A DNA stretch of 64,000 nucleotides. Source: an uncultured virus (IMG/VR IMGVR_UViG_3300042691_048250). Its lineage: Duplodnaviria > Heunggongvirae > Uroviricota > Caudoviricetes. The position numbers were made by a program, and so were the translations under genes. The stretch is taken from IMG/VR virus record IMGVR_UViG_3300042691_048250. The stretch is one strand, 5' to 3'. The notes beneath the pieces are model-generated. The model made no database searches, was not told where the DNA came from, and saw only the letters and a program-made list of their open reading frames with translations. Shown here piece by piece: positions 7,347 through 58,573 of the stretch; the first letter of the stretch is position 1, and each line of letters starts with the position of its first letter.

Positions 7347-8730
7347 TGTCCAACGACTGTTCCTGGAGATGATGTTGCAGGATGCACAGAGTTACATCCG
7401 TGTGCAGAACATCTACAATCCAGAAAACTTTGATCGCAGCCTGCGTCCAGCAGCCGAGTTCATAAAAGAACACTGCGACAAGCACAAGACCATGCCGGAC
7501 CGTGCGCAGGTGTCGGCTACCACATCCACTCGTCTGGAACACATCCCTGATCTCACTGAAGGACACTTTGACTGGTTCTTGGAAGAGTTTGAAGGATTCA
7601 CACGCAGGCAAGAACTGGAACGTGCGATCTTGAAATCAGCGGACTTGCTGGAAAAAGGCAACTTTGATCCTGTGGAAAAACTGATCAAGGATGCAGTGCA
7701 GATATCCTTGACCAAGGACATGGGCACAGATTACTTTGATGATCCGCGTGCGAGATTGATGGCCTTGAAAAACAACAACGGCCAGAACAGCACAGGTTGG
7801 CCTGCCTTGGACAAGCTGTTGTATGGCGGATTCAATCGCGGCGAACTGCAGATCTTTGCGGGTGGATCGGGCTCGGGCAAGAGCCTGTTCATGCAGAACT
7901 TGGCAGTGAATTGGGTAGAGGCCGGACTTTCTGGAGTGTACATCACTTTGGAACTTTCCGAAGGTCTGTGTGCCATGCGTATCGATGGCATGCTCACCAA
8001 CACAGCACAAAAAGAGATCTTCCGAGACCTTGACACCGTAGAGATGAAGATCAAGATGATGGGCAAGAAGTCGGGCAAGATGCGTATCAAATACATGCCT
8101 GCACAGAGCACAGTGAACGACATCCGGGCGTATCTCAAAGAACTGCAGATACAGACCGGATTGAAGGCAGATTTCCTGTGTGTGGATTATTTGGATCTAC
8201 TCATGCCAGTGAGTGCCAAGGTATCACCCAATGACCTGTTTGTCAAAGACAAATATGTGTCGGAAGAACTGCGCAACCTGGCCAAAGAACTCAACATCTT
8301 ATTTGTCACAGCAAGCCAGTTGAATCGTGCGGCAGTGGAAGAAATTGAGTTTGACCATAGCCATATCTCAGGTGGTATTTCTAAGATCAATACTGCGGAC
8401 AACGTATTTGGTATCTTTACATCGAGAGCCATGCGTGAGCGTGGTCGCTATCAATTACAGTTGATGAAGACTCGTAGTTCCTCGGGTGTAGGACAGAAAG
8501 TGGAGCTGGAATTTGATATCGAAAGCCTGCGCATCCGAGATCTTGCGCAGGATGAAGGTTATCAAGAGTTCAAAAAACGTGCGCCATCGATCTATGAGTC
8601 GATCAAGGCCAAAAGTACCTTGACAGACGACGAACCCAATGCCACTGTTGCTGACGAGCCAGGAAAAATCACGGCAGAAGTACAGTCATCAAAACTTAAA
8701 AGCCTATTGAATCAAATCAAAAGTGTTTGA
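7324..8730 (+). CDS. Replicative DnaB-like helicase (T4 gp41-like)
   Basis: GGSGSGKS, ITLELSE, VDYLDL, TASQLNR. Confidence 0.92.
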   Translation: MLKDYGIDVQRLFLEMMLQDAQSYIRVQNIYNPENFDRSLRPAAEFIKEHCDKHKTMPDRAQVSATTSTRLEHIPDLTEGHFDWFLEEFEGFTRRQELERAILKSADLLEKGNFDPVEKLIKDAVQISLTKDMGTDYFDDPRARLMALKNNNGQNSTGWPALDKLLYGGFNRGELQIFAGGSGSGKSLFMQNLAVNWVEAGLSGVYITLELSEGLCAMRIDGMLTNTAQKEIFRDLDTVEMKIKMMGKKSGKMRIKYMPAQSTVNDIRAYLKELQIQTGLKADFLCVDYLDLLMPVSAKVSPNDLFVKDKYVSEELRNLAKELNILFVTASQLNRAAVEEIEFDHSHISGGISKINTADNVFGIFTSRAMRERGRYQLQLMKTRSSSGVGQKVELEFDIESLRIRDLAQDEGYQEFKKRAPSIYESIKAKSTLTDDEPNATVADEPGKITAEVQSSKLKSLLNQIKSV

Positions 8731-9553
8731 AGTCAAAGTCATAGTGTTTACCGGCCGATAGTTTTGAATCTATGTCCGTGATCCAATCAATTGTGATTGG
8801 AGACACAGGATATTCTGGTAAATGTTCATTGACCCAGGCAAGGTGTTGCAATGGACTTGGATGCATATCAACTGTGTTCCAAAGATTTGAAGATATCGTT
8901 CTGTCTTGCTTAATCATGTCACAAAAGTCATATAGTTCTTGTTTCACAAATGCATCAAGAGGCATGTTGCGATACTGTCCATCTAGAATTTGATCCAACG
9001 GGGGCCAACTTGCACCTGCCATCCTATCGTAAAGTTGCCGCGCAGATTTTAAACTCTGTGGATGTAAACGATATGGTTTTTGATTGGGCGTCATGGGTGC
9101 ATATTTGATACGGTCTAAGATTGGACCATAGAGTTTGTATGGCTCAGTATCGCCATCAAATTCCTGCCAATGCAACATTTTATAGTTGATCTTGAGGTAA
9201 TCTAGCATGTACTGTACAGATGCCATCCACGCAAATGACAACCATTGATAACCGACAGGACATGACAACGGTATATCTTTGCGAGATAGATCAAAATATT
9301 GATTCACAAAGTGAGACCATTCATTGATCTGATAGTAATCAATTCTAGCCAAACCCGACCAAAGTATGATCACGGTATCATCGGGCCGGAATTTATGAGT
9401 CAGATGGCATCGATTTATCGCGTTGAGAATATAATTATTGCCGGCTCCGGGACGACCCCAATTGTAAAATTCAGTGAAACTCCTGCCTATGATATCTGCC
9501 CAGGTAGGATAGTGATAAGAGGTGTGGCTGCAACCAAATGTGAATAGTCTCAT
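8717..9553 (-). CDS. SGNH-like hypothetical protein
   Basis: FGCSHT, NWGRPGAGN, DMHPSP. Confidence 0.6.
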   Translation of the reverse strand: MRLFTFGCSHTSYHYPTWADIIGRSFTEFYNWGRPGAGNNYILNAINRCHLTHKFRPDDTVIILWSGLARIDYYQINEWSHFVNQYFDLSRKDIPLSCPVGYQWLSFAWMASVQYMLDYLKINYKMLHWQEFDGDTEPYKLYGPILDRIKYAPMTPNQKPYRLHPQSLKSARQLYDRMAGASWPPLDQILDGQYRNMPLDAFVKQELYDFCDMIKQDRTISSNLWNTVDMHPSPLQHLAWVNEHLPEYPVSPITIDWITDIDSKLSAGKHYDFDFKHF

Positions 9554-11250
9554 TGATTTAGATACTCGTCAATTTTTATGCTTTTGACATTGGATTTTTG
9601 ACACATCAAAAACTGGCTACCGTCTCTGTTTTGACGTTCGCCTTGTCCTACTATCACAGAGCCTGAATCATACTTAATGGGCCGATCCACGATAAGGTCC
9701 ACATACTCTCCTTCGCCTACTCCCAGGGTGATGAAGTGAATATATTTTTGTCGATCTCTGCGGAATACCCGGCTGTTGGCCACGATACCAGCAAACTCAA
9801 ACTTATCCAAGTAGAGATTCCTTACTCCCATTCGCGGCAAGAAGCCCGGAGAATTCCAGCAGCCATGCTCCACAAATGACTCCACAGGATCTTCAGTGAT
9901 CCAGTTGTCAAATCCAAGATCGCGCAGGTCCCAGCCTGCTCGCTTGGCTTCGTTGCGATAGACCCAACGAGCATAACTTCCTTGGCAATGCTTGAGTGCG
10001 GCACGCCAGAACTCTCTGGGGTTGTGTGCTTTCTGCCAGGCCAGGGCCCAGATCAAGCGGCCAAGGTTCACAGCATGTGCGCGGCACAGGCCAAAACCTG
10101 ATAAACTCTGCATCTCTTGATAGATGGCGTGTCGATCAGGGTGGTCACCCAGCCGAGCCATGAACTCCATGACCTTTTCTTCGTTGCGCTTGGCAAAGGC
10201 CCGGCGATACATGTCGGCTTCGTAGGCATTTACAGAGATCAGTTTCATGATCTTTTCTATGGCATCGTCTTCGCATACTATGGCCGACTCTTGCACAGTT
10301 TTTTTGGTCCAGTCATGGAAGAACGAAGCCTTTTTACGACCTTCCACGGCCACGGGTCGTACCAAGGCCGTGGCAAACACACAGTCTTCTACAGACGTGG
10401 GCTTGATGGCTCGGAACAGTCGGCGCATGGCCGGGGATTCTCCCTGTGTCACTCCCAAGACATCCCCGCGCTGTAGCAGATCCGCTGTGAGATCATCTTC
10501 CTTGGGATATTCGTGTATCCGGCGGGCGGCATCAATCTCCATGAGTTGGCTGAGCCCACGATTGGCCAGGATGTCTACTTTGAGGTGCTCGAGATCCTCT
10601 ACTTCGTTTTTGTCCAGCAAGATGAGATTGTCATCGCGGAACAGGCTCTGCGGTAACTTGCGATCAAACACTATGACTCCACCGCAGTGCTTGCTCAGGC
10701 AACGTTTCTTGCCCATGAGTTTTTTCTCTATGCGGCGTGCTTCTTCCACATCCACGCCCAGTTTGGCATAGTCTATTTCCTTGGGCAAGCGTCCTCGAGC
10801 GCCCAGGCGCTTGGCTGCTTCGCGCCGGGCCGATTTTTCTTTGTACATCACATAGTTGCTGATGCGAGCAGTCTTGCCGGGCCAGGCATCAAAGATCCTT
10901 TGCATGGCCAACTCTTGTTGGTGGTGTGGCACATCGATGTCCACATCAGGCAGATCGTCTCGGAAGGGATTGAGGAATCGGGCCAGGGGTATGCGCCATT
11001 CTATGGGATCCACATCTGTTATGCCCATGAGATAGCACACCAGGCTGGATCCTGCGGATCCGCGTGTCATGTGTGGTATGTCTTTATTGAGATCTAGGAC
11101 CCTGCGTATCTTGAGGAAATAATCCGTGAATCTCTGGTTGATGATTATGCCAAATTCTTCTGCTAATCTTTCTTGGTAGTCCAGTGTGTCCGGACAGGAC
11201 CTGCGGAATTCTGCTAACAATTCCTCGATCTGCTGTAATTCTGTCGCCAT
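9550..11250 (-). CDS. dnaE: DnaE-like C-family DNA polymerase lacking the PHP domain
   Basis: RGSAGSSLVCYLMGITDVDP, PDVDID, KHCGG, KVDIL, GFGLCRAHA. Confidence 0.85.
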   Translation of the reverse strand: MATELQQIEELLAEFRRSCPDTLDYQERLAEEFGIIINQRFTDYFLKIRRVLDLNKDIPHMTRGSAGSSLVCYLMGITDVDPIEWRIPLARFLNPFRDDLPDVDIDVPHHQQELAMQRIFDAWPGKTARISNYVMYKEKSARREAAKRLGARGRLPKEIDYAKLGVDVEEARRIEKKLMGKKRCLSKHCGGVIVFDRKLPQSLFRDDNLILLDKNEVEDLEHLKVDILANRGLSQLMEIDAARRIHEYPKEDDLTADLLQRGDVLGVTQGESPAMRRLFRAIKPTSVEDCVFATALVRPVAVEGRKKASFFHDWTKKTVQESAIVCEDDAIEKIMKLISVNAYEADMYRRAFAKRNEEKVMEFMARLGDHPDRHAIYQEMQSLSGFGLCRAHAVNLGRLIWALAWQKAHNPREFWRAALKHCQGSYARWVYRNEAKRAGWDLRDLGFDNWITEDPVESFVEHGCWNSPGFLPRMGVRNLYLDKFEFAGIVANSRVFRRDRQKYIHFITLGVGEGEYVDLIVDRPIKYDSGSVIVGQGERQNRDGSQFLMCQKSNVKSIKIDEYLNQ

Positions 11251-19022: not shown

Positions 19023-19536
19023 CCCCGAGTTGCACCTCGCTGCCTGGCAAGTGATAGATCAGAAGCCTGGCTGGCGCTACATTGCCATGCACGGTGATCA
19101 TCACTGGCACTGGAATTGGCCAGTTACCACGCTGACCAACACCGCTGGAAATCTTGCATCCATCTGGCTGCCGAACGTGCCGGACCCGATCAAGTGCCTG
19201 GTTCAGCACATGATACAGAACCATAGCGACTTGCGAGCGAACCGTGTGGTAATCAACGGACAGACCCGGGGCATGCACAGCGCACGGCACAGAGACAGCA
19301 TCCGGCCTGGAGCCCGCACTCTGCTGGCCTATCTTAATCCTGTGTGGCAAGAGATCTGGTGCGGTCACACTGTGTTTTTCCAAGGAGACCAAGAAATCTG
19401 CAGGGTGTTGCCCGAACCGGGCTTGATGCTGGATTATGACAGCACACAGTACCATCAAGGACTGGGTCCTGAGGTAGATAATGTGCTTAGAGTGACCCTG
19501 AGCGTGCAGATGGTTCCGCTAAATACACGAACTTAA
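18997..19536 (+). CDS. 2OG-Fe(II) oxygenase / prolyl hydroxylase-like (start uncertain)
   Basis: HRD, LAYLNPVW...CGHTVFF, YHQG, RVTL. Confidence 0.7.
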   Translation: MSYTTCRLDPELHLAAWQVIDQKPGWRYIAMHGDHHWHWNWPVTTLTNTAGNLASIWLPNVPDPIKCLVQHMIQNHSDLRANRVVINGQTRGMHSARHRDSIRPGARTLLAYLNPVWQEIWCGHTVFFQGDQEICRVLPEPGLMLDYDSTQYHQGLGPEVDNVLRVTLSVQMVPLNTRT

Positions 19537-19547
19537 CGGATCCAACC

Positions 19548-28261: not shown

Positions 28262-28338
28262 ATATTTTTCTATGGCATCTGCACATGCTAAGTAATTCGT
28301 GGCGTTTCATGCCACATTCTTTTCGAAAAGGAAAATCA

Positions 28339-29487
28339 ATGAAAAAATTAGCAATAGCTGCGGCCTTGGCCGCGATGGTCTCAACCGTTAACGCACAATC
28401 AATTAGCATCTATGGTGTGTTTGACAATGCAGTACGACAGGATTCGTCAGCCAATGCTGCCGGTGGCAACCGCACTGATATGTACAGCGGTGTCCAGTCT
28501 ACCAGCCGTTTGGGCTTCCGCGGCACTGAGGATCTGGGCAATGGACTATCAACTCGATTTGTGTTAGAAGGCGGAATCAACACAGCCACTGGTGCATCAA
28601 GCCAAAACGGTAGCACGGGTTCGATCTTGTTTGATCGTTTCGCCTATGTAGCTCTGGGAAGCAAAACCGCTGGTGAATTGCAGTTGGGCCGCAACACCGG
28701 TGCCACTCTTGACATCGCGGCACGTGGTATCACAGATCCTTTGCGTGCGGCCATGGACGGCGTTGCAGCTCCAGTGGTCGTATCCAATGCGACCTATGGT
28801 GTGAGTTCGGCTCGCATCAATCAGTCGATCTATGCGTATGGCAACACCAACGGTCTCAAAAACAGCCGTGCCGACGGCATGTTGAAATATGTTAACAAAT
28901 TTGGTCCAGTAGGCGTGATCGCAGGTTACAGCCCAGGTGGTGTGGCCGGTAGTGAGTCGGCCAGCACAGCCACTACCTTTGGTGCTACAGTTGACGCAGG
29001 TCCGGCTGTGTTGGGTGCCGCGCAGTTTGTAGCCAAAGATGCCACAGGTAAAAAAGCTACCAGCGCCACCTACGGTGGCAATGTCAAGTTTGGTGCTGCC
29101 ACGCTGACCGCTGGTTATCACACAGTTGATAGCGATGCTGGATACGTGGCTTCACACTTGACCACCACGGCCACTGCTACCACGCCGATCTTGGGTCTGG
29201 CTACCACAGCCGGCCCTTCTACCGAAGCCAAGATCGCCAGCGTGGGTGTGCGCTATGAACTATCTTCCAAGTTCGCCACTACATTGGCTTACTATGACGG
29301 CGAGTACAAAAACGGGTTGGGTTCCAAAGGTGATCTCAAGACCACGGTACTGTTCAATGAGTACAACCTCAGCAAGCGTACCAATCTCTATGGTATCATC
29401 GATCATGCCAAAGCCTCAAATGACCTGGTAGCAACAACCAAGTCAACCAACGTGGGCATCACTGCTGGTATCCGTCACACGTTCTAA
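28339..29487 (+). CDS. Gram-negative trimeric porin (Betaproteobacteria type)
   Basis: Signal peptide, AQSISIYGVFD, SRLGFRGTEDLGNGL, YNLSKRT, C-terminal GIRHTF. Confidence 0.93.
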   Translation: MKKLAIAAALAAMVSTVNAQSISIYGVFDNAVRQDSSANAAGGNRTDMYSGVQSTSRLGFRGTEDLGNGLSTRFVLEGGINTATGASSQNGSTGSILFDRFAYVALGSKTAGELQLGRNTGATLDIAARGITDPLRAAMDGVAAPVVVSNATYGVSSARINQSIYAYGNTNGLKNSRADGMLKYVNKFGPVGVIAGYSPGGVAGSESASTATTFGATVDAGPAVLGAAQFVAKDATGKKATSATYGGNVKFGAATLTAGYHTVDSDAGYVASHLTTTATATTPILGLATTAGPSTEAKIASVGVRYELSSKFATTLAYYDGEYKNGLGSKGDLKTTVLFNEYNLSKRTNLYGIIDHAKASNDLVATTKSTNVGITAGIRHTF

Positions 29488-31697: not shown

Positions 31698-33089
31698 ATG
31701 TCACAAGGCAAAGCACAGGCATTTGACCCCACAGACGAAAAGGCATTTACAGGCACGGTGTCAGCAGACTGGATAACTGATCTCGAGTCATCAGACTCAC
31801 GCATACACAAAGAACAGGTCATCGAAAAGGCCCTGATGGCGGCCAATCTCGGATCAGCCTCGGCACAGGCGTTCCTTTACAACTGCTATCTCGCACTGAA
31901 TCCTTTCCATGTCTACGGGGTGAAGAAGGTACCTGAAAGCCGAGCACTCACCAATCAAGAGAATCCCTGGGTCTCGTTCTGGGGGCTGTGCGAAAGCCTC
32001 CGCACTCGTAGTGTCACTGGTGGCGATGCCCGCAGAGCCATCGAGGCCATGATGGCGAGATTTGATTCTGAACAATGGAACAAGATGTGTAGGCGTGTGC
32101 TGATCAAAGACCTACGCTGTGGTGTGAGTGAAAAGACAGTGAACAAGATCTGCGGACGCACTCAATGGGCCATACCCGTGTTCTCCTGCCAGTTGGCCCA
32201 GGACTCAAATGATCGACCCAAAGACATGCAGGGTCGCAAGCGTCTGGAATGCAAACTGGATGGTGTGCGTGTGCTGGCTGTGTTCAATGGCACGGGTTGC
32301 ACGCTGTACAGCCGCAATGGCAAGGCCTTTGAGAACTTTCCGCAGATCCAGGAGTTCCTGGAAGACAATCGCCACTTGTTCGCACATGGCGCCAGGACCG
32401 GTGGACGGTTCGTGCTGGATGGCGAGATCGTGGGCGAATCATTCCAGAAACTCATGCGACAAGCACATCGCAAGAGCGATGCTGAGACCACGGGCATGGT
32501 ATATCATGTGTTTGACATGATCCCTTTGGAAGATTTCGAGCGTGGACACTGGAATGCCCAGCAACACAAACGACTAACCCTGTTAGACCGAGCCCGTGAG
32601 CGGCTGACCAAGACCGATCCGGTACAGATCATGCCCGGACTGGAAGTGGATCTCGACACAGCCGAGGGGCAAGACATCATGCGTCGCTTTGCTGAAGACG
32701 CTGTCACAGCCGGCTACGAAGGCATCATGATCAAGGATTTAGATGCGCCTTATGAATGCAAACGAAGCAGTTTTTGGATGAAATGGAAGCCCACCATAAC
32801 GGTGGATTTGAACATCATTGGTTTCGAATCTGGCACCGGTCGTAATCAAGGTCGGTTGGGTGCTATAATTTGCGAAGGAGTTGATAATGGTAGAAATATT
32901 CATGTTAATGTTGGCAGTGGTTTGTCTGATAGCGATCGCGATCAGTACTGGGCCTTACGGCACGATCTGGTTGGTCGAGTGGTTGAAGTCCAAGCGGACG
33001 CAGTCACACAAAACCAAGACGGATCATACAGCCTGAGATTCCCCAGATTTGTAAGATTCCGCGGATTTGAACAAGGAGAAAAACTGTAA
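31698..33089 (+). CDS. ATP-dependent DNA ligase
   Basis: KLDGVR, LDGEI, VFD, EGIMIK, WMKWK, SLRFPRF. Confidence 0.95.
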   Translation: MSQGKAQAFDPTDEKAFTGTVSADWITDLESSDSRIHKEQVIEKALMAANLGSASAQAFLYNCYLALNPFHVYGVKKVPESRALTNQENPWVSFWGLCESLRTRSVTGGDARRAIEAMMARFDSEQWNKMCRRVLIKDLRCGVSEKTVNKICGRTQWAIPVFSCQLAQDSNDRPKDMQGRKRLECKLDGVRVLAVFNGTGCTLYSRNGKAFENFPQIQEFLEDNRHLFAHGARTGGRFVLDGEIVGESFQKLMRQAHRKSDAETTGMVYHVFDMIPLEDFERGHWNAQQHKRLTLLDRARERLTKTDPVQIMPGLEVDLDTAEGQDIMRRFAEDAVTAGYEGIMIKDLDAPYECKRSSFWMKWKPTITVDLNIIGFESGTGRNQGRLGAIICEGVDNGRNIHVNVGSGLSDSDRDQYWALRHDLVGRVVEVQADAVTQNQDGSYSLRFPRFVRFRGFEQGEKL

Positions 33090-33301: not shown

Positions 33302-33451
33302 ATGAGATTTAGGATATACTGGCGCATCGTTAGTCCCTGGATTATTATACCAGCAGTCTTGATATCCACACCTTTCGTCTTGGCCTGGGTATGGATTAAA
33401 AATCCACGACAATGCTGGCGATTATGGCGAGAAAGTAAAAAAATCTATTAA
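33302..33451 (+). CDS. Small membrane peptide
   Basis: MRFRIYW...hydrophobic core, basic tail; ends before terminator. Confidence 0.45.
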   Translation: MRFRIYWRIVSPWIIIPAVLISTPFVLAWVWIKNPRQCWRLWRESKKIY

Positions 33452-33457
33452 CCAAAT

Positions 33458-33479
33458 GCCGCCTCCAGGGCGGCTTTTT
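33458..33479 (+). terminator. Rho-independent terminator
   Basis: GCCGCC-TCCAG-GGCGGC-TTTTT. Confidence 0.8.
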
Positions 33480-33490
33480 GTGTTATAATA

Positions 33491-33725
33491 ACTTTGCAGT
33501 GAAGGAGTATAATGGAAGGCAAGGGTGGATGGAACCCGGGATATCCAGTCCGTGGCGATTAGTCCCAATAAGTCCTTCAAGGTTGAGGCACCACCAGATC
33601 GGATCAGCCGCTGGAAAAGATCCGATCAAAATCGAACTCGTAAGCGACCTTGGGTCGCCACTGCGGTCGAGAGTAAGCCATAGTGGTGCGGCAGGGTGAA
33701 AGCAGGTATCGGCAACTGTATCGAA
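33491..33725 (+). ncRNA. Candidate structured non-coding RNA, family not recognised
   Basis: Extended -10 TGTTATAAT at 33481-33489; six or more nested helices visible by eye; no convincing long ORF. Confidence 0.55.
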
Positions 33726-33745
33726 ACGGAGATCTCTAAACTAAT

Positions 33746-34045
33746 ATGTCAACGCAACTCGATCCTCTTAAAACAACGGCTCCGGAACTGCACCGGTTTT
33801 GGTTCTTTGTATCCACAGAGAAGCAATGGTACGACATCATCCGGGAGTGCCGATCTTGGTTTGGAAAGAACTGGCAAGGCATGGCCAAGGTACGCAAGAA
33901 GTTGAGTGCCCGCCATGGCCGCTTGCGTATCGGACCTATGCCTGTTTGGTTTGAAGTGCCAGATCCGCGATTCGCTACCTGGGTTTCGGTCAAACTCAGC
34001 CTACAAGTTCAGAGTGATGCCAAATATCATTCGGGAGAAAAATAA
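33746..34045 (+). CDS. Hypothetical protein
   Basis: 99 aa, W/basic-rich; VWFEVPDP.FATW. Confidence 0.65.
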   Translation: MSTQLDPLKTTAPELHRFWFFVSTEKQWYDIIRECRSWFGKNWQGMAKVRKKLSARHGRLRIGPMPVWFEVPDPRFATWVSVKLSLQVQSDAKYHSGEK

Positions 34046-34046
34046 T

Positions 34047-34655
34047 ATGCCATTAAATCAAGAATTTTGGAATACCAAACACGAATCAAACGACCTCACG
34101 TGGATCACTGGCAACTATCTACAAAAGTATTACCAATGGCTGGGGATATCAGAAAATGATTTGCGGGATAAAACCGTGTTGGAAATAGGAGTGGGCATGG
34201 GCTATGCTTCGGCACAGATATCTCAACTGTGCGCCGCTCTTTACTGTGCCGATATCAGTGCCAAAGCCCTGCGGCGTGTGTCGCTGATCGCTAAAGGCTG
34301 CTATCAAACCATGGACATCAAATTGGCCCCTCCGGTAGATTTGGCCCTGTGCCATCTTGTGCTGGTCCATTGTGATGATGATGAATTCGTTAGGATAATC
34401 AATGATGTAAATCTGTTGCCCAACGGTCGTCTCATAGTACAAATTTCCGGTCCGGGTCCAGGGGGATTACCGGAACGAGTCAACACTGAATGGCCGCCAG
34501 GCAGCCATTTTTTCCGATCCGCAGATCAAATCAATGATCTGGTGGGCCGGACCAACAAAAAAATAGTAACGCAACTTCCGTCACGGGGAATATTACATGG
34601 AGATTGGTTTCCGCATGTGTGGCACGTGGTATCTTTAGGTAACCAATCCACATGA
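34047..34655 (+). CDS. Class I SAM-dependent methyltransferase
   Basis: VLEIGVGMG, ADIS, LVLVH, LLPNGRL. Confidence 0.8.
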   Translation: MPLNQEFWNTKHESNDLTWITGNYLQKYYQWLGISENDLRDKTVLEIGVGMGYASAQISQLCAALYCADISAKALRRVSLIAKGCYQTMDIKLAPPVDLALCHLVLVHCDDDEFVRIINDVNLLPNGRLIVQISGPGPGGLPERVNTEWPPGSHFFRSADQINDLVGRTNKKIVTQLPSRGILHGDWFPHVWHVVSLGNQST

Positions 34656-34675: not shown

Positions 34676-36214
34676 ATGTTTCTAACTTACCTTATGCTGG
34701 TGGTTGCTTTGTGTTTAAGCGCCATCGCCGCTTTTTATAGTATCATAGGCCTCACTGCTATCTTCGCTTCAGCAGTGATTCCTGTGGCTATCATGGGCTC
34801 GATCTTGGAAATCGCCAAGCTCACAGTCACAGTATGGTTGCACGAATACTGGCATCGTTGCAAGCGTGCCATGAAGGTATATCTGGTGCCAGCCGTGGGC
34901 GTGCTCATGCTGATCACATCCATGGGCATTTTTGGATTCCTATCAAAGGCCCATCTTGATCAGGCTGTGCCAGCAGGCGATGTATCAGCCCAGGTTGCCA
35001 TCTATGATGACAAGATCAAATCGCAACGCGACAACATCGAGGCTGCTCGCAAGGCACTGCGCCAGATGGATGACGCTGTGGACCAACTCATGGCTCGTAG
35101 CCAAGACGAGCAAGGTGCGCAACGTGCAGCCAATCTTCGCAGGAATCAAGGCGCAGAACGCAATAGGTTAAACACAGACATCAGTCGTGCTCAAGCCGAA
35201 ATAGTCAAACTACAAGAACAAAGGGCACCCATAGCCAGCCAGGCTCGCAAGGTAGAGGCCGAGGTTGGACCTATCAAATACATCGCCGCACTGATCTATG
35301 GTGATAACCCCGATGCCAATCTCCTGGAAAAGGCCGTGCGCTGGGTCATAATCATCCTGGTGGTAGTGTTTGATCCCTTGGCCATATTCATGTTGTTGGC
35401 CGCCACAGAAAGTTACAAGTGGGAAAAGTATGGCCGAGATGGTGACCCCAAAGAATCGGACGAGCCACCTCCCAAACAGCCGGTCAATGATGCTGTTCAA
35501 CGAACCCGGATCTGGGCCGAGGATCTATGGAACCGTGTCAGGAGATCGAAAAATGCAAGTGTGGATGATGATGCAACTGTTACCCCGAGTGTGGTTGGAC
35601 AACCTACAAGCAATGATATGGGAATTCAACCCGTGGCTGCGGTGGTGGGACAATCTCAAGGTATACCCCCGGAACAATGGGGCGGATTAGATCTCACTCC
35701 TCGCACACCACCGGCGCCGCAGGTAAAATATGTGGGCGATGCAGATGAAGAAATCGTCGAACCGGACAAAAAGATTGCATTGGAAGATCTCGACAGCGAC
35801 AACGAAGACGACGCTGTGAAACGAGCCAAGACCTTGTGGAAAGAACGCCATCCAGATCAAACGTTGAAAGAGCAACGGGCGTTGTTGGCAGTAGGACGCA
35901 TACCAGAATTACCATGGATGTCACTGGTGCCCGAATGCGAAAAAGACATGATTAGATTTGGTCAACAGAAACCGCAGGATGCTATCAAGGGTGATATCTT
36001 TGTAGACACATCGGCCTTGCCCACGATTTTGTTCAAGTTCAATGGCAGTAAATGGATCGAGGTAGACAAACGCAACACAGATCGTTATGCTTACAATGAT
36101 CAATACATTGATTATCTCATTGATAAGATTGGAACGGGTGAGTATGACCCGGAACTGCTGAGTGATGCCGAAAGATCGCAAATTGAGCAACGTTTGAAGA
36201 AAGGTGATGCGTGA
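34676..36214 (+). CDS. Membrane protein with long coiled-coil
   Basis: Three N-terminal TMs, coiled coil, [11 protein letters not shown] with VFDPLA; late promoter. Confidence 0.75.
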
Positions 36215-37398
36215 GTGCAGACAAAGTTGGAGCCTGTAGTTTCTGTAACAAACCCAAAGACGCAGTTAAAAAACTCATAGTCAGTGACTCCGTAGCTATT
36301 TGCAACGACTGTGTGCAACTGTGCCAAGATCTATTGCAGGACGAAAAAATAGACCTTGGTACCGTGGCTGATCGCCAGATGGATGCTCGTGCCATCAAGG
36401 AATTTTTGGATCAATATGTGATTGGTCAGGAAGCCAGCAAGATAGTGCTCTCCGTGGCCATAGTCAATCATTACAAGAGATTGTCTGCTAAAGAACAAGA
36501 TTGCGAGATCGCCAAGGCCAATATTTTGATGATTGGTCCCACTGGATCAGGCAAAACCTTGCTGGCCCGCACCGTGGCCCGGTACCTTGATGTTCCTTTT
36601 GTAATCGCTGACGCTACTTCTATCACAGAAGCAGGCTATGTAGGCGATGACGTAGAAAGTCTGATTTCTCGATTGTATGTCACTGCAGGCAACGACGTAG
36701 CAAAAACCCAGCGAGGCATAGTGTTCGTAGACGAGATAGACAAAATAGCTCGTAAAAGCGAAAGCACATCTATCACCAGAGATGTATCCGGCGAAGGAGT
36801 GCAACAGGCCCTGCTAAAAATGGTCGAAGGCACTGTTTGCCGCATACCTGCAGGTGGCGGTCGCAAACACCCTGCGGGTGAAATGATTGAAATTGACACT
36901 GCCAATATCCTGTTTATCGCCGGCGGCGCATTTGTGGGATTAGATAACATCATCAAACAACGTATGTATGGATCCAGCATAGGTTTTGGATCACCGGTAC
37001 GTAGCCACGACGACGTGGATATGAAAAATGTGGTTCCAGATGACTTGGTCAAATATGGTATGATTCCTGAGTTTGTGGGCAGATTTCCCAGCGTGGTAAC
37101 ATTGGACAATTTGGAATTTGGAGACATGCGCCGGATCCTGACCGAAATCAAGCACAACTACGTGGATCAGTATCGCTGGCTGTTTAAGCAAGATGGCATA
37201 GAATTGACCTTTGATCAAGGAGCTCTGGATGCCATAATTGAAAGAGCCATGGCCAGTGGAACAGGTGCCCGTGCTCTGCATTCAGAGATAGAGCGGGCAT
37301 TGATGCCTCATATGTTTGATATCCGAGAATACCGCAAGCAGAGCATAGATAGCCTGCAGGTAACCAAAGACATGGTAAATAAACCACATACATTATAG
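36211..37398 (+). CDS. clpX: ATP-dependent Clp protease ATPase ClpX
   Basis: CSFC...CNDC zinc domain, [29 protein letters not shown] loop, TGARAL. Confidence 0.97.
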
Positions 37399-37680: not shown

Positions 37681-37716
37681 TTTATAGTCAACTTGCTTAA
37701 CAAAGGAGAAGACATC

Positions 37717-38157
37717 ATGACTAAAATCTCAACGTTTGACCTCACCCCATTCTACCGTTCCACGGTAGGTATCGACAGCCTGTTCGATCGTATCACTCGC
37801 AACATCGACATGGCTGCCAACGCAGGAAATTATCCTCCGTACGACATCGTGAAAACCGGCGACGAATCCTACGAGATCCGCATCGCGGCTGCAGGTTTCC
37901 GCCAGGACGAAATCGATGTAGAGGTCAAAGATGGCCAATTGGTAGTACAAGGCGGTCAGAGCACAGAAGCACGTCCGGAAGTAGAATATCTACATCATGG
38001 CATCTCAAACCGTAGTTTCATCCGCACTTTCCAACTCAGCGACTATGTTGAGGTCAAGGAAGCGGTGATGAAAGACGGCATCCTAACGGTAAAATTAGAG
38101 CGCATGATTCCTGAGGCCATGAAACCCAAGAAAATCGCTATATCTTACCAATCCTAA
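37717..38157 (+). CDS. Small heat shock protein Hsp20/IbpA
   Basis: NYPPYDI, AAAGF, YLHHGISNRSF, DGIL. Confidence 0.95.
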   Translation: MTKISTFDLTPFYRSTVGIDSLFDRITRNIDMAANAGNYPPYDIVKTGDESYEIRIAAAGFRQDEIDVEVKDGQLVVQGGQSTEARPEVEYLHHGISNRSFIRTFQLSDYVEVKEAVMKDGILTVKLERMIPEAMKPKKIAISYQS

Positions 38158-44068: not shown

Positions 44069-44619
44069 TGCGTATCAGCTGGGTGTTGCAATCAGATTAC
44101 AGATTTGATCCTTCTATGGACATGGATCGTCTTAAAAGCGTGGGACCTCTCTGGGGCAGTTGGCAAACTTGGAGAGATTGCACGACAGACAATGTGATAT
44201 CTCACGAAATGGCCAAATGCCGTGAACTGTTAGATCGAGCATTCCAGGCTGTATGTAATTTTTATATTCCTAAGAAACATTATCAATCTTTGAACCGACC
44301 CATGGGTGTCAAACTTTACGAGGGAGATTTCATGCAAGAAGTCACCAACATTGAAGACATAGTATCTATGCATCTTGCCAGCCAGCAAAGCGATATAATA
44401 TTGTTATTGGGTTTTGATCTGAGTATGTCAACGTCCGCCAGCGACAAATATGAATTACATAAATTCAAAAACTATCATGGACTGATACGTAGTATCATCC
44501 ATTCAACTCCGGAAGTGCAGTGGGTGTGTGTGGACCATCGTGGGGACTTTGACAAGGCCTATGGCGATCTTGGCAATCTAAGCCAAGATCACATGCAAAG
44601 GGTATTTGAGATGCTGTAA
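44065..44619 (+). CDS. Hypothetical protein
   Basis: ILLLGFD motif. Confidence 0.6.
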   Translation: MMRISWVLQSDYRFDPSMDMDRLKSVGPLWGSWQTWRDCTTDNVISHEMAKCRELLDRAFQAVCNFYIPKKHYQSLNRPMGVKLYEGDFMQEVTNIEDIVSMHLASQQSDIILLLGFDLSMSTSASDKYELHKFKNYHGLIRSIIHSTPEVQWVCVDHRGDFDKAYGDLGNLSQDHMQRVFEML

Positions 44620-44654
44620 CGAGCAATGCTAATTGCGGACGCCTGAGTTAGTTA

Positions 44655-44891
44655 TTATTCGGTCAGTGTGATCGCGCTGGATGCGGCAGGAGGAAGCATG
44701 ATATTTAGGCTATAATTGATCCATTTGTTGGCATCGTTAATATCGCTAAATTTATGGGTACTGGTCCGGTTATCATTTGTTGATAATTTTTCGATACGGC
44801 TGGGACAATTGGAAGAGATCCAGGCGATAGCTTCCGTGGTCCGATCTCCATTGTTCTCATTGTATTGGTTTGTAACGTGGTAAATGGGCAT
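44655..44891 (-). CDS. Small hypothetical late protein
   Basis: TAAATA and AAGGAG upstream on minus strand. Confidence 0.6.
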   Translation of the reverse strand: MPIYHVTNQYNENNGDRTTEAIAWISSNCPSRIEKLSTNDNRTSTHKFSDINDANKWINYSLNIMLPPAASSAITLTE

Positions 44892-47056: not shown

Positions 47057-48337
47057 ATGGACAACGATCGTAAATGGCAAGCGTATAACCTTCAAAAAGA
47101 ATGGGCTGAAAATCCTCGATGGAGAGGAATCAAACGAGGTTATTCTGCCGAAGATGTAGTGCGATTGCGAGGTAGCGTCCAAGAGGAACATACCCTGGCA
47201 CGCCGAGGAGCCGAGAGACTGTGGCGAGATCTCAACGAAACTGATTATGTCAATGCCTTGGGTGCATTGACTGGCATGCAGGCACTGCAACAAGCCAAGG
47301 CTGGTCTGCGAGCCATCTATCTCAGCGGCTGGCAAGTCGCGGCCGATGCCAATCTTGGAAGTGAAATGTACCCCGATCAGAGTTTGTATCCCGCCAACTC
47401 AGTACCGGCCGTGGTACGCCGTATCAACAACACGTTTAAGCGTGCGGATGAGATACAGTGGATGGAAGGCGTTGAAGACACAGATTATTTTATACCCATC
47501 GTGGCCGATGCCGAAGCCGGCTTTGGTGGGGTGCTGAATGCTTTTGAACTGATGAAAGGAATGATACATGCAGGAGCCGCAGGAGTACACTTCGAAGATC
47601 AGCTTGCGTCTGTCAAAAAATGCGGACACATGGGTGGCAAAGTCTTGGTCCCGACTCGGGAGGCTGTGGCTAAACTCATATCGGCACGTCTTGCTTCTGA
47701 TGTCATGGGTATTCCTACTGTGCTTATCGCTCGCACTGATGCAGAAGCCGCCGACTTGGTTACATCAGACATTGACCCTAACGACGAGCCCTTCCTCACC
47801 GGTGAGCGAACTGTGGAAGGCTTTTTCAGATCCGCCAACGGAATCAACCAGGCCATAAGTCGCGGCTTGGCCTATGCACCTTACGCTGATTTAGTGTGGT
47901 GCGAAACTGGTGTGCCTGATCTGTCCTTCGCTAAACAATTTGCCGAGGCAATGCATAAACAATATCCTGGCAAAATGTTGGCATATAACTGCTCACCCTC
48001 GTTTAACTGGAAGAAGAATCTCGACGACGCTACCATAGCAAAATTCCAGAGAGAACTTGGCGCCATGGGCTACAAGTTCCAGTTCATCACCCTGGCTGGT
48101 TTCCATCAGCTCAACTATGGAATGTTTGATCTCGCACATGGTTACGCTCGTGATGGCATGACATCGTTTGTCAAATTGCAAGAACAAGAGTTTGCCGCAG
48201 CTGATCGTGGATTCACTGCTGTGAAACACCAGCGCGAAGTTGGTACCACATACTTTGACGCAGTAACCACCACTGTGGAAAGCGATTCATCTACTCAGGC
48301 CATGAAAGGTTCCACGGAAGAAGGGCAGTTCCACTGA
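47057..48337 (+). CDS. aceA: Isocitrate lyase
   Basis: [50 protein letters not shown]. Confidence 0.98.
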
Positions 48338-48489: not shown

Positions 48490-49197
48490 ATGACCCTATT
48501 CATATACATCCTGGTGATGACACACATCACCATAGCCTGTGTTACTCTTTATTTGCATCGCAGCCAAGCACATAGAGGAGTCACATTCGATCCACGTGTG
48601 GCACATTTCATGAGATTTTGGCTGTGGCTGACCACAGGCATGGTCACCAAACAGTGGGTTGCCACACACAGGAAACATCACAGATTCACCGATGTAGAAG
48701 GTGATCCACACAGTCCACAAAATGAAGGTATCTGGCAGATACTGCTGGGTGGTGCTTTCTACTATGCAGAAGCTGCCAAAGATCGCCAGATGGTCGAACA
48801 ATATGGTGTGGGCACACCCGATGACTGGGTGGAACGCAATGTATATACACCCTACAACCTTGCAGGCATAGCACTCATGTTGATCATAGATCTATTATTA
48901 TTTGGCTGGTGGGGCATATTGGCCTGGGGCTGGCAAATGATTTGGATCCCTTTGTGGGCAGCCGGTGTCATAAACGGCCTGGGACACTGGTGGGGGTATA
49001 GGAACACTCAAACCAAAGACTATTCCACTAATATTGTGCCCTGGGCATTCTTCATCGGTGGCGAAGAACTGCACAACAATCATCATGCAGATCCTGCCTC
49101 GCCAAAACTCAGCCAAAAACCCTGGGAATGGGATCTGGGTTGGACCTATATCAAACTGCTACAACGTCTGGACTTGGCACAGGTCAAAACTGTTTAA
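48490..49197 (+). CDS. Membrane fatty acid (delta-9-like) desaturase
   Basis: His boxes HRSQAH, HRKHH, HNNHH. Confidence 0.93.
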   Translation: MTLFIYILVMTHITIACVTLYLHRSQAHRGVTFDPRVAHFMRFWLWLTTGMVTKQWVATHRKHHRFTDVEGDPHSPQNEGIWQILLGGAFYYAEAAKDRQMVEQYGVGTPDDWVERNVYTPYNLAGIALMLIIDLLLFGWWGILAWGWQMIWIPLWAAGVINGLGHWWGYRNTQTKDYSTNIVPWAFFIGGEELHNNHHADPASPKLSQKPWEWDLGWTYIKLLQRLDLAQVKTV

Positions 49198-54183: not shown

Positions 54184-55134
54184 ATGACAGACATTAAAAT
54201 CAGTACCTGCGGTGACCACTGGTTAAATCCTCAAGAGGTCATTGAACAAATACGTGCCACACACCCAAATGAGCCCATCGTATTGAATCTTGGATCAGAG
54301 GGTGCGAGTTTAAGGGCTTTGGGCATCGTGGATATCGTCACGCAGACCAGCAACGAACAAGGGCGCGATCTTGGGTCAGTATCGATCAAAAGTTGGCCCA
54401 ATCTTGTTGAGACCGTGCCTTTCCAGCGTGCGGACAATCACAGGATAAGCCATTTTTTCTGGATGGCCGATAGGTACCGAGATACACCTATCGCATCACC
54501 CACTGATCAGCATCTTTTCGCCTTGTTCATAGGTCGTCGTACATGGCCCCGCATGCGCATCGCTTATGATTTGCAGAGGATGCTGGGCCAACGATTCATG
54601 CTCAGCATGATGCGAGATGGACCTTATGACAGCCCCTACGGTATCAATCTAGACAGTGAACATGTCTGGAGCAACAATAGAGATTTCAAAATCTGGTATT
54701 CATCTCCATCGGTAGACAGTATTGATGGGCACGATTTCCGCGATCAATATGATGGCGAGCAGAACACCCATGCTGATCTCTTGAGACACTATCACAAATT
54801 CAGCATCGAAATAGTTTGCGAAGCGCATACTCGAGGTTCCTGCTTCTTCCCTACAGAAAAAACCGTAAGACCATTGGCTGCCGGCAAACCCATCATGGTC
54901 TATGGTTCACGAGGATTCCTGGCCCGGCTGCGAGATTTGGGATTCCAGACTTGGAATGGTTTGTGGAACGAAGACTACGACGATCTTGAAGGTTTCGATC
55001 GTTGGCTTGCCATGCGCAGTCAGATCCAACTATTGGCCAACTGTATAAACACTATGCCCAAGATGGCCATAGACATAGCCGAGCACAACAGGCAACATGC
55101 CAAGGCGTTGGCCGATCGATATCGACCTCAATGA
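54184..55134 (+). CDS. Glycosyltransferase-like protein
   Basis: IVCE...PTEKTVRPL..GKP...GFQTW...EDYD. Confidence 0.55.
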   Translation: MTDIKISTCGDHWLNPQEVIEQIRATHPNEPIVLNLGSEGASLRALGIVDIVTQTSNEQGRDLGSVSIKSWPNLVETVPFQRADNHRISHFFWMADRYRDTPIASPTDQHLFALFIGRRTWPRMRIAYDLQRMLGQRFMLSMMRDGPYDSPYGINLDSEHVWSNNRDFKIWYSSPSVDSIDGHDFRDQYDGEQNTHADLLRHYHKFSIEIVCEAHTRGSCFFPTEKTVRPLAAGKPIMVYGSRGFLARLRDLGFQTWNGLWNEDYDDLEGFDRWLAMRSQIQLLANCINTMPKMAIDIAEHNRQHAKALADRYRPQ

Positions 55135-56123: not shown

Positions 56124-56701
56124 TGCCTATCGTTTTAGAAAACACCTCCAAAGGTGAGCGCAGTTATGATATCTACAGTCGCTTGCTCCGAGACAGGATC
56201 ATCATGCTAGACAACGAAGTCACCCAGCATTCAGCCAGCCTGGTAGTGGCACAGATGTTGTTTCTTGAAGCCGAAGATCCTGACAAAGATATCCTGTTGT
56301 ATATCAATTCTCCCGGCGGCAGTGTCACAGCCGGCATGAGCATCTACGATACCATGCAGTTCGTCAAATGCGATGTATCAACCATAGTATTAGGGCAAGC
56401 AGCCAGCATGGGCAGTTTACTGGCCGCAGCCGGTGCATCCGGCAAAAGATACATCCTGCCCAACGCCAGACACATGATACATCAGCCTCTGGGCGGCGCC
56501 TCAGGCCAAGCCACCGATGTAGAGATACAGGCCCGAGAACTGTTGCGCTGGAAAGAAGTCCTGACCAATGTTTATGTCAAGCACACTGGTCGCACGTTTG
56601 ATGTTTTGCGTGCTGACATGGAGCGCGATAACTTCATGACTGCTGAACAGTCTGTGACCTATGGCTTGGCCGACAAGGTGCTGGACCGACGTGACGCCTA
56701 A
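56111..56701 (+). CDS. clpP: ATP-dependent Clp protease proteolytic subunit
   Basis: [33 protein letters not shown]. Confidence 0.97.
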
Positions 56702-58022
56702 CGCTAAGATATTCTGCAATTCTCCTTGGTATGAACTGCAGATCTACTGGGATGGGTCTTTAGGGTTTTGTTGCCAGGAAGCCCACAAAATCTATCCTGA
56801 GTCCGAGTCTGCCAAATACAACATTCGTAACATGTCTATCTCAGAATGGATGGATAGTGAGCCTATGAGACAGGCACGGTTGAGCATGTTTGGTAATGAA
56901 AAAAATAGTTTTTGTACAAGATGCTACAACGAAGAAGACCACAGCGGCACCAGCAGGCGTAATCGAAGCAATCAGAAATCTGTGATATTCCAACGCAACT
57001 TCCAAGAAAGTTATGATCAAGGACCCGGACGCAACAAGTTTGAAAGTTCACGTGTGCGCCAGGGACATCATGCTGATTTGCCCGTAGATCTTCACATAGA
57101 TCTTGGCAACTATTGCAATCTCACTTGCAAAATGTGCAATCCTCGAGCCAGCTCCAGCATCGCTGTTCAGCATGTCCGTTGGGGCATGACTGATGCACAG
57201 CAATATGTAGGTACTGATTGGACACGAGACACCGACTTATGGCAGCGCACCTTGCGAGATCTGGCCAACATACCGCGTTTGAAAAACGTACATTTCATGG
57301 GAGGCGAAACTTTGTTGACTCCTCGATTTGAAGAATTTTTAGATTTTATGATTGCGCAAAATCGACTTGATATCAATATCAGTTTCGTTACCAATGGCAC
57401 ACATTTCATTGACAGGATCATGCCCAAGCTGGCTCGCTTCCGGGGCGTGAACATCGAAGTCAGCATTGAAAGTCTGACCCAACACAATGCCTATCAAAGA
57501 CAGGGCACCAACACAGACCAAGTCATGATGCATGTCAAACGCTACCTGGATCTCACCAATGAACATATGAGCCTCACCGTTAGACCTGCTATCAGCGCAT
57601 TGACCATAGGTACATATCACACTTTGTTAGCCTGGTGTTTGCAAAACAATGTCGTGGTAAAATCCTTGCTATGTACCCAGCCTCAACATCTTAATGTTGT
57701 GATCTTGCCAGATGCTGTAAAAAAACACTACAGCCAAAGATATCATGATTTCTTGGCGCGGTATGACCTTGAATCTTTGCCGGTGACAACTGATTACAAT
57801 GCCAGCGATCGCAATGAAATTAAAAAAATCATCAAGAATCAGGTATTGCAGTGCCTATCTGTTCTGGCCACACCACGTCCAGAAGATGCCGACGCATGCC
57901 TTGGACAAATGGTGTATTGGTGCCAACGCTGGGATAGGGTACATGGACTCGATGCCCGAACGTTATACCCAGAGTTGGAAGAGGTGTTTAATCTATATCA
58001 CTATGACCCGTTACCGCAGTAG
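56691..58022 (+). CDS. Radical SAM protein with extra Cys (SPASM/twitch-like) domain
   Basis: CNSPW...CC...[20 protein letters not shown]. Confidence 0.9.
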
Positions 58023-58458
58023 ATTTCTTATCGATATTGAGCCTATATGGCAAACGCAACCACCCTTGGTCACGATAGTCTTGGATGATCATGTTGCTCA
58101 TCATGGTATTGTGCCCCAGGCTACACAACTCATGATCGATAAAGAATTAGATTCAGGTTGGCACGATCTCGCTGTGATCCTTGGCCACAAGTCCGACCAC
58201 GATCCAGTGCAGGCCGTGAAGATTAAAAACATCAAGATAAATGATATCACCAGCGCCAAATTTGTTTGGCAAGCCCGATATCGCCCTGACTATCCTGAAC
58301 CTTGGGCCAGTCAACAACGCCAGTTGGGCATGGATTTACCGGAAGAAATTGGCATGACTGATTATCTTGGCTGGAACGGACGGTGGAATCTGCGTTTTTC
58401 GGCGCCGGTGTTTACCTGGATCCATGACATAGAGTCACTGGGCTGGATCTACGACTAA
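58003..58458 (+). CDS. Hypothetical protein
   Basis: LGWNGRW.L.F..PVFTWIH C-terminus. Confidence 0.65.
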   Translation: MTRYRSRFLIDIEPIWQTQPPLVTIVLDDHVAHHGIVPQATQLMIDKELDSGWHDLAVILGHKSDHDPVQAVKIKNIKINDITSAKFVWQARYRPDYPEPWASQQRQLGMDLPEEIGMTDYLGWNGRWNLRFSAPVFTWIHDIESLGWIYD

Positions 58459-58573
58459 AGAATGAGTTCGCGTGTGGTATGGTAATGGAGATAATACCAT
58501 CGCCACGAGGGACCATACCGCCAGTGGCAGTACTGGAAAACCATGTAATCTTGCGCGGCTCTTATGATGCCGC

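Follow-up and report, generated by a model that had tools for sequence, protein, structure and literature searches.

What is encoded in the 265 nucleotides (nt) that lie between a transcription terminator and the gene of the small protein gp97 in the genome fragment IMGVR_UViG_3300042691_048250 of an uncultured tailed phage? The whole 64,000-nt stretch of this record that was analysed is called the window in what follows. From its letters, the original prediction had proposed for this gap a highly structured RNA of no known family with its own promoter, acting either in trans, as a ribozyme or as a complex cis-regulator of the open reading frame (ORF) beginning at 33746. We find in the gap a complex and conserved RNA to which no Rfam entry corresponds. 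On the + strand it spans about 33496 to 33763 (~270 nt), running through most of the 265-nt gap and into the first 18 nt of ORF 33746–34045. The element is probably a previously unclassified member of the structured cis-regulatory leaders, forming the 5′ leader of the gp97 mRNA. Among the three readings offered originally, regulation of ORF 33746 in cis is the best supported, with the element adjoining gp97 in 80 of 80 matches, no terminator-like site detected before the ORF, and the start codon and first codons paired. The main features of the locus are as follows.

33458–33480, + strand: intrinsic terminator of the upstream unit, a stem-loop at 33458–33474 followed by a T run (terminator scan).
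33481–33489, + strand: extended −10 element TGTTATAAT, recognized in the sequence, with a predicted transcription start at ~33495–33496.
33496–33763, + strand: the whole structured RNA, 5′ leader plus 18 nt of the ORF; covariance model R2 (see below) matches 33494–33748 with 214 bits, and helices P8 and P9 extend the element to 33763.
33746–34045, + strand: gp97, a phage protein of 99 amino acids with a predicted ferredoxin-like fold (β-α-β twice).

The gap is thus preceded by a terminator as had been claimed, while the 3′ end of the element, initially placed at 33745, has to be moved because the fold runs to ~33763. The statement that no known RNA family is involved was borne out: Rfam 15 searched at the gathering score gave no match in the whole window, and ten diverse homologous loci gave none at E ≤ 0.01. 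A permissive search of 33400–33800 (E up to 10) returned sub-threshold matches only, mostly on the terminator or due to chance, the best of them reaching 18.4 bits against a threshold of 43. A blastn search of GenBank phages with the region found no match. Bacterial RNase P RNA was tried as a candidate and rejected, as no RNase P match appeared at E up to 10 and blastn against E. coli genomes came back empty; the element shares short sequence resemblances with this RNA which, we presume, are not collinear.

Does the RNA always accompany the same gene? A gp97 search yielded five viral loci whose upstream regions align. A conserved 21-nt pattern identified seven true viral loci out of eight and, in metagenomes, at least nine true loci among 80 fetched; one metagenome locus (L074) is the window's own phage, identical over 1421 nt. 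A looser DNA pattern gave three real loci of 80, none of them new. With a gp97 profile 126 viral relatives were obtained, 80 of which were kept, as well as one contig (L214) binned in a metagenome-assembled genome (MAG) of Haliscomenobacter. A first covariance model (R1), based on an RNAalifold structure, recognized the RNA in 38 of 75 new loci and missed about half of the family. The second model, R2, built after hand curation, detects exactly one copy in 80 of 88 sources, and every match ends at the gp97 start. In the eight R2-negative sources (L144–147, L150, L152, L160 and L180) gp97 starts at about residue 11–15, behind a short promoter-only spacer which follows an unrelated upstream gene. 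The RNA and the N-terminal gp97 codons come and go as a unit. No copy of the RNA was found elsewhere in five RNA-less records, one of them 91% complete, and four of four longer RNA-bearing records contain exactly one copy. The completeness estimates of four records imply genomes of ~350 kb for the RNA-bearing phages. The element is widespread in uncultured freshwater phages, and its sequences form three groups, a main group (25 sequences, the window included), group A (20) and group B (19).

The proposal of a purely trans-acting RNA is weakened: the element adjoins gp97 in all 80 matches, shows no terminator-like site between 33475 and 33781 in the terminator scan and pairs with codons of the ORF. 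Neither a terminator or 3′ end of its own nor independence from one neighbouring gene, as would be expected of a trans-acting small RNA, was found.

What fold does the RNA adopt? When RNAalifold was run on the MAFFT alignment of each group, the consensus structures were poor or misleading, and the helices were therefore derived by hand and then tested by counting. This led to twelve supported helices, two of them pseudoknots (PK1 and PK2). The core of the structure upstream of the start region is made up as follows.

33501–33578, + strand: 5′ arm consisting of P1, P1b and P2.
33501–06/33573–78, + strand: P1, tentative, 66–68% of cells paired, three pairs solid.
33523–25/33564–66, + strand: P1b, covarying, partly misaligned in the main-group alignments.
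33527–32/33545–51, + strand: P2, covarying, partly misaligned, with A33547 bulged and a 12-nt loop at 33533–44.
33554–57, + strand: 5′ strand of PK2, GGC(G), which belongs to the conserved CCGUGGCR bulge and pairs with (A)GCC at 33676–79.
33579–33588, + strand: conserved joining strand AAGGUUGAGG (consensus AGGNUGNGR, alignments A7 and A10).
33589–92/33695–98, + strand: P3 (CACC), 100% paired in 24–25 main-group sequences.
33593–96/33684–87, + strand: P4 (ACCA), covarying, 63–67% paired in column terms.
33597–605/33619–27, + strand: P5, a 9-bp hairpin, 77–84% paired, with eight to nine of nine pairs changed on both sides.
33607–11/33688–92, + strand: PK1, P5 loop GCCGC with GCGGC, 97.5% paired on the MAFFT-only alignment.
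33628–33631, + strand: joining strand AAAA, within motif CAAAAY (33627–32) whose end bases are paired in P5 and P6.
33632–35/33667–70, + strand: P6 (UCGA), enclosing P6b, 82–90% paired.
33644–49/33653–58, + strand: P6b, 87–89% paired, five of five pairs changed on both sides.
33671–33679, + strand: conserved joining strand GAGUAAGCC, of which 33676–79 is the 3′ strand of PK2.
33684–33698, + strand: 3′ strands of P4 (33684–87), PK1 (33688–92) and P3 (33695–98).
33702–05/33716–19, + strand: P7 hairpin, GCAG with CUGU, 92.7–97% paired.

With 24 main-group sequences aligned by MAFFT only (A7), 78.8% of the cells pair as compared to 62.1 ± 0.9% in shuffled alignments, none of 500 reaching this value, and to 35–45% in slid-partner controls; 42 of 51 pairs have changed on both sides. 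Pairing is highest in P3 (100%), PK1 (97.5%) and P7 (92.7%), followed by P6b (87%), P6 (82%) and P5 (77%). The lower figures of P1, P1b, P2 and P4 (50–82%) are due to register shifts in an alignment made from sequence only. After fitting to the covariance model (A9, 25 sequences) 83.6% of the cells are paired versus 63.6% in shuffles. The homologous structure of groups A and B (39 sequences) reaches 88.4%, against 77.9% when shuffled and 29–50% when slid. Judged by covariation, the structure derived by comparison is clearly more than chance, in the main group as well as in groups A and B. The strand can also be assigned: G-U pairs are frequent (for example 19–22 GU at the first pair of P7), and on the opposite strand they would give A-C mismatches, which settles it as the + strand.

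About half of the helices that had been drawn by eye hold. The perfect 9-bp hairpin is P5 and the GCGACC/GGTCGC helix is P6b, and both covary. The pairing of GAAGGA with TCCTTC (P1) is supported only in part, with three solid pairs and the 66–68% given above. A pseudoknot formed by loop GCCGC (33607–11) had been suspected correctly as far as the loop is concerned, but its partner is 33688–92 and not 33663–67; this is PK1, in which five of five pairs have changed on both sides, and which is still 94.4% paired on the covariance-model alignment although the model omitted it. Other helices had to be replaced. The ACUGU thought to close both ends of the RNA (TGCAGT/ACTGTA) is instead the 3′ strand of P7, where it pairs with GCAG 33702–05. 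TGGATG/TATCCA turned out to be a register specific to the window, the conserved helix being 33527–32/33545–51 (P2). Comparison resolves GCACCAC/GTGGTGC into P3 and P4, and the conserved helix near CTCG/CGAG is UCGA of P6. The small 16-codon ORF within the gap lacks its ATG in most homologues (A7).

Groups A and B strengthen several of these helices. P1b is 98.5% paired there, with five of five pairs changed on both sides, and P5 reaches 98.1%. P3 takes the form CACUG/CAGUG in group A, and P7 in the main group occurs with GC, UA, UG, CG and AU pairs. The GGC/GCC core of PK2 is compatible in all but one (L139) of 63 distinct sequences; its three pairs show no double change among them. A fourth pair is AU in 39, UG in 5, GC in 3, CG in 1 and UA in 1, with 14 non-pairs, and the window has G opposite A at this position. 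In many members of groups A and B the PK1 loop is replaced by a short P5 hairpin with a GCAA- or GAAA-type tetraloop, which appears to be a swapped tertiary contact. Unpaired junction nucleotides are kept across all three groups (CCGUGGCR, AGGNUGNGR, CAAAAY, GAGUAWGCC and GUGAAAG), the AAAAC being invariant in A10 and nearly so in A7.

A few further pairings were inspected by eye and rejected: the 5′ GGGG with the 3′ CUCU lacks compensation, and neither the junction GAGG with the tail UCUC nor UCCGU 33549–53 with ACGGA 33726–30, a helix derived from the minimum free energy (MFE) structure, shows covariation. The 5′ GCAGUG can be matched to CACUGC 33659–64 at only three to four of six positions across the group.

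How is this fold connected to the start of gp97? Directly 3′ of P7 two short helices recruit codons of the ORF.

33720–24/33759–63, + strand: P8, AUCGA with UCGAU of codons 5–6 (Leu-Asp), closing a 34-nt loop that holds the start codon.
33731–33/33748–50, + strand: P9, GAU with GUC, within the conserved motif GGAGAUCUCU (33728–37).

Over 55 distinct sequences, drawn from all three groups, P8 is 97.5% paired, four of its five pairs having changed on both sides, and slid controls in which P7 and P8 were counted together gave 21–46%. The choice among Leu codons (CUC, UUG, CUG, UUA) is matched by changes in the leader strand of P8. In P9 the 3′ strand is made up of the G of the start codon plus bases one and two of codon 2. 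The three core pairs of this helix are 96–100% paired (GC 35 and AU 17; GC 32 and AU 21; CG 34, UG 15 and GC 6), a covariation drawn from about three lineages only, and a search for partners of the remaining bases of the GGAGAUCUCU tail motif found none. In groups A and B a change of codon 2 between Ser UCU and Thr ACU is also matched in the leader (first base of codon 2: A-U 25, U-A 13). Because the fold includes the first gp97 codons, codon choice covaries with the leader, not only between synonymous codons but even between Ser and Thr.

The position of the start site is not the same in the three groups. Groups A and B possess an in-frame AUG 10–11 codons upstream, invariant in 39 of 39 sequences, which must be the start codon in some members because their downstream AUG is ACG or AUC. 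This upstream AUG and the GG of its Shine–Dalgarno sequence sit in a hairpin homologous to P7 that is 100% paired. In the main group the upstream AUG is lost and a TAA closes the frame; here the spacing between a GGAG and the AUG varies from 12 to 19 nt, making the GGAG unlikely as a Shine–Dalgarno sequence.

A side observation concerns the codons just downstream of P8, where the Leu-Lys codons CUUAAA (within 33767–33778) are kept at the nucleotide level. The CTT is invariant in 63 of 63 sequences of alignment A11, though Leu has six codons, and the constraint at the RNA level may accordingly reach further into the ORF. The AAG of the GUGAAAG strand is complementary to this CUU, but without covariation.

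Is the element transcribed from its own promoter? The claim stands in part. TGTTATAAT at 33481–33489 has its counterpart in the homologues, whose promoters lie at the same distance, whereas a consensus scan did not call this promoter in the window because the −35 region is poor (8/12). Among the homologues, 49 of 64 score at least 9/12 against TTGACA-N16-18-TATAAT and 31 are perfect; these sigma-70 promoters lie 6–8 nt upstream of the conserved 5′ motif of the RNA (GCAGUG or GCAUGA). The terminator scan found no terminator-like site in 33475–33781. A terminator-like hairpin with a U-rich tail at 33782–33802 (gp97 codons 13–19) was rejected, as inspection by eye showed that its stem is not kept in homologues. 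Two contigs from RNA libraries of different studies end at 33784, within this hairpin.

Logan contigs from four metatranscriptome runs of four studies cover 33563–33784, 33579–33777, 33634–33784 and 33579–33713, the rest of the 1001-nt query being uncovered. One contig is >99% identical and three come from relatives, so that conservation biases where contigs can be placed and the uncovered flanks are not evidence of absence. They hint, if weakly, at a leader that is transcribed and that may outlast the remainder of the mRNA.

A different explanation is that the element is a stable RNA, be it a scaffold, a component of a ribonucleoprotein or a self-associating molecule, for which the overlap with the gp97 start would be secondary and which may pair with a second copy through a palindrome in the P2 loop. 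In the window this loop (33533–44) contains CCCGGG at 33535–40. Of 24 main-group sequences, with P2 loops assigned by eye on A9, 18 have a 6-nt palindrome in this loop: CCCGGG in 15 of them, CUCGAG in L027, UCCGGA in L158 and GGCGCC within AAGGCGCCUU in L156. L027 and L136 differ at 20 columns, and two of these are symmetric positions of the palindrome. That CCCGGG is replaced by other palindromes suggests self-pairing between loops, or a binder that is itself a dimer. The tail motif GAGAUCUC, too, is palindromic. A 6-nt palindrome flanked by A residues in a hairpin loop and kept via double substitutions resembles the kissing loop of the dimerization initiation site of human immunodeficiency virus 1, from which the element differs in that six of 24 main-group loops have no palindrome. 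Like the self-assembling 'ornate' RNAs of bacteria and phages (OLE, ROOL and GOLLD; 10.1101/2024.12.08.627333), the element is phage-borne and complex, but those RNAs are free-standing and far larger, while the element is an mRNA leader whose self-association is hypothetical. A stable RNA would fit the limited span of the RNA-library contigs (33563–33784 only) and the covariation of P7 in the main group, where it holds no start site. On the other hand, the terminator scan detected no candidate site ahead of the ORF, the RNA was always accompanied by gp97 in the sources searched, 6-nt palindromes arise easily by chance (one is present somewhere in 32 ± 3.7 of 63 shuffled arms), and in groups A and B the tail motif is better accounted for by its cis partner in P9. 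We consider a stable RNA of this kind unlikely.

The observations taken together lead us to favour, with some confidence, a cis-acting translational gate, which might be riboswitch-like or bound by a protein. A sigma-70-type promoter just past the terminator of the upstream unit would drive an mRNA made of leader and gp97. The leader folds into the 5′ arm (P1-P1b-P2) and a P3-P4 stem carrying a three-way junction with P5 and P6, with PK1 (P5 loop to the P4-P3 strand) and PK2 (CCGUGGCR bulge to the GAGUAAGCC junction) locking the parts together. P7, P8 and P9, the latter using the GGAGAUCUCU motif, hold the translation start directly 3′ of this core. In the folded core P3, P7 and P8 could stack, closing the start region. 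A trigger that binds the conserved junction core, either a small ligand or a protein, gp97 itself being a candidate, might then shift the balance and in this way set the output of gp97, and probably that of the co-transcribed DUF4407-like and ClpX-like genes too. In this proposal the conservation, strand, helices, pseudoknots, gene linkage and pairing of the start region are observed, and the start of transcription, the stacking of helices and the regulation, with its direction and its trigger, are what we infer.

If the trigger were a small ligand, either a molecule or an ion, the P1–P6/PK1/PK2 core would be an aptamer and P7–P9 a translational expression platform. The cobalamin and lysine riboswitches, which combine large aptamers with translational expression platforms, are the natural comparators. 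The element shares with such large riboswitches the location in a 5′ untranslated region behind a promoter, on the strand of gp97, a covariation-supported multi-helix junction core with unpaired nucleotides conserved in all three groups, long-range loop pairings (the two pseudoknots) and a start region held in helices beside the core. The groups share the conserved core but not the position of the start codon, and the apparent exchange of the PK1 loop for a tetraloop-capped P5 would also be in line with an aptamer. It differs in that at E up to 10 it is matched by no riboswitch model of Rfam, helix order and motifs are not the same, and its fold is partly made by the first codons of the ORF. 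In addition, the gene context (a small protein, a DUF4407-like and a ClpX-like protein) suggests no metabolite, and an alternative pairing was looked for and not found. A riboswitch is for us a possibility to be entertained with considerable reserve.

The trigger could instead be a protein of the module. By analogy with autogenous operators, gp97 or another product of these genes would bind the leader and repress or activate its own translation. Comparators are the leaders of ribosomal proteins S15, S4 and S6:S18, the pseudoknot of phage T4 gene 32 and the RegA operators. As in these systems, a 5′ leader with pseudoknots extends over the translation start of a gene for a small basic protein (AUG and codons 2, 5 and 6), and RNA and gene are strictly linked, all 80 matches adjoining gp97. 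Variants without the RNA also lack the N-terminal codons which form P8 and P9. gp97 is small and basic, and weak structural neighbours of its predicted β-α-β fold include the RNA-recognition motif (RRM) and ribosomal protein S6; its N-terminal 15 residues are predicted to be disordered and may be conserved for the sake of the RNA. However, all fold matches of gp97 have E values higher than 0.07, many of them being to proteins without RNA binding, and gp97 belongs to no Pfam or PHROG family, let alone a known RNA-binding one. The element is also far larger (~270 nt, 12 helices) than the known autoregulatory leaders. Autogenous control would be a rather improbable form of the translational gate.

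Two further explanations have been considered. The weak helices P7–P9 could melt with temperature and so tune a proteostasis module, the ClpX-like gene (36211–37398) and an Hsp20 gene (37693–38157) lying downstream and the start region being held by short helices. Known RNA thermometers are mostly short hairpins, and ~270 nt with two covarying pseudoknots and conserved junctions far exceed what melting needs; we find a thermometer very hard to defend. The location directly behind an early-type promoter at the head of an operon and the conserved complex fold might likewise point to an RNA acting on RNA polymerase, as in put-like processive antitermination, or to a self-cleaving ribozyme as originally suggested. 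There is no similarity to Rfam antiterminators or ribozymes, no cleavage site can be inferred and the pairing of P8 and P9 with the coding region would be left unexplained, making this proposal highly improbable.

Several observations weigh against the translational gate itself. Its key helices are short (5 bp in P8, 3 bp in P9), and the start codon is found in different helices depending on the group, P7 in groups A and B and the P8 loop plus P9 in the main group. Even where P7 contains no start it covaries, so the fold must serve more than hiding one start site. A mutually exclusive conserved alternative pairing, that is an anti-sequestor, was looked for and none was found. The metatranscriptome contigs stop by 33777–33784, short of the remaining ORF, and a discrete stable RNA would also fit this pattern. 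The structural similarity of gp97 is to generic ferredoxin-like folds only, RRM and S6 being among weak neighbours of many kinds. Finally, folding energies do not distinguish the element from random sequence: the MFE of the + strand is −76.8 kcal/mol versus −72.8 ± 4.7 kcal/mol for shuffled sequences (z −0.86), and 36 of 200 shuffles are as good. The − strand gives a z of −2.49. The comparative structure is moreover not the MFE structure, its energy being −45.1 kcal/mol in the drawn form and −59.6 under constraint, compared with −76.9 for the MFE structure, and the two share 19 of 54 pairs.

An MFE no better than that of shuffled controls is precisely what the original prediction had named as speaking against it. 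Since the folding of the single sequence is not significant, the case for an RNA rests on comparison. Could the region then be no RNA element at all but a coding stretch (ORF 33478–33699 or the 16-codon ORF) or a chance structure? The window does contain an open frame of 73 codons, and 22 of 64 homologues have an open frame of at least 60 codons somewhere in the region, which together with the insignificant z-score is all that speaks for it. Indel lengths are not divisible by three, compensatory changes are seen in more than 40 pairs and the ATG of the 16-codon ORF is not conserved, so that we attach practically no weight to this possibility.

The genes which the putative gate would control form a conserved module. 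Downstream of gp97 the window encodes the following proteins.

34676–36214, + strand: DUF4407-like membrane/coiled-coil protein (Pfam match below the cut-off).
36211–37398, + strand: ClpX-like AAA+ protein (Pfam).

The DUF4407-like gene directly follows gp97 in 81 of 81 related loci. Only in the window is a gene resembling S-adenosylmethionine (SAM)-dependent methyltransferases (34046–34655; Pfam match on frame 33906–34655) interposed between the two, being present in 0 of 81 related loci; it looks like a recent insertion into the module. For gp97 we found 519 relatives, and the 120 listed are all unnamed or annotated as 'hypothetical protein'. A tblastn search of GenBank phages with gp97 gave no match, a PDB sequence search no lead, and its neighbours in the Protein Atlas were phage-only and likewise gave no lead. 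The AlphaFold2 (AF2) model (predicted local distance difference test score, pLDDT, 80.3; predicted template modelling score, pTM, 0.69) retrieved nothing at E ≤ 0.001 with Foldseek. Upstream of the terminator lie an ATP-dependent DNA ligase (31698–33089) and two small ORFs.

As to the host, the entire module (RNA, gp97, DUF4407-like and ClpX-like genes) lies on the 39-kb contig L214 from the MAG of Haliscomenobacter, a member of the Bacteroidota. As an indication of the host this binning is doubtful. A perfect TTGACA/TATAAT promoter, not known to be the usual type in Bacteroidota, precedes the module. The window belongs to a large phage that carries replication genes and a ribonucleotide reductase. 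Host-like genes in the window encode a Gram-negative porin, Hsp20, isocitrate lyase, a fatty-acid desaturase and a radical SAM/SPASM protein (28285–29487, 37693–38157 for Hsp20, 47057–48337, 48490–49197 and 56661–58022). At 8717–11250 on the − strand, amid replication genes on the + strand, a 566-amino-acid ORF has the NTPase and finger domains only of DNA polymerase III alpha, and may be split or truncated. According to a crude ORF map, four other gaps of 525–669 nt in the window are without a long ORF (19023–19547, 44069–44704, 54438–55001 and 58023–58691), and Rfam has no match in any of these four.

Has the element been seen before? Fremin, Bhatt and Kyrpides (2023, PMC10690425) extracted 10,006 structured-RNA candidates from IMG/VR, with cis-regulatory ones upstream of phage genes, and the element may be among them. 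Six IMG sample numbers are not present in the accessible tables of that paper. A full-text literature search, outside of which the PMC10690425 alignments lie, found no description of the element, and the accessible text of a preprint on prokaryotic noncoding space (10.64898/2026.10.21.760802) mentions neither phage nor ClpX nor DUF4407.

What would such an RNA mean for these phages? The element heads a conserved three-gene module without known function. To our knowledge few large complex RNA folds are still uncatalogued, and very few are known from phages. It is conceivable, if doubtful, that the element represents a new class of ligand-sensing or self-pairing RNA, in which a pseudoknot-locked, aptamer-like core, a kissing-type palindromic loop and a platform built in part from the first codons of gp97 would gate the gp97/DUF4407-like/ClpX-like module in response to a signal from host or phage. 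The covariance model and the pair list make the element directly testable. If it does sense a ligand or its own protein, it would offer a possible new aptamer or control element, and a handle on how the phage times an early module with a ClpX-like unfoldase.

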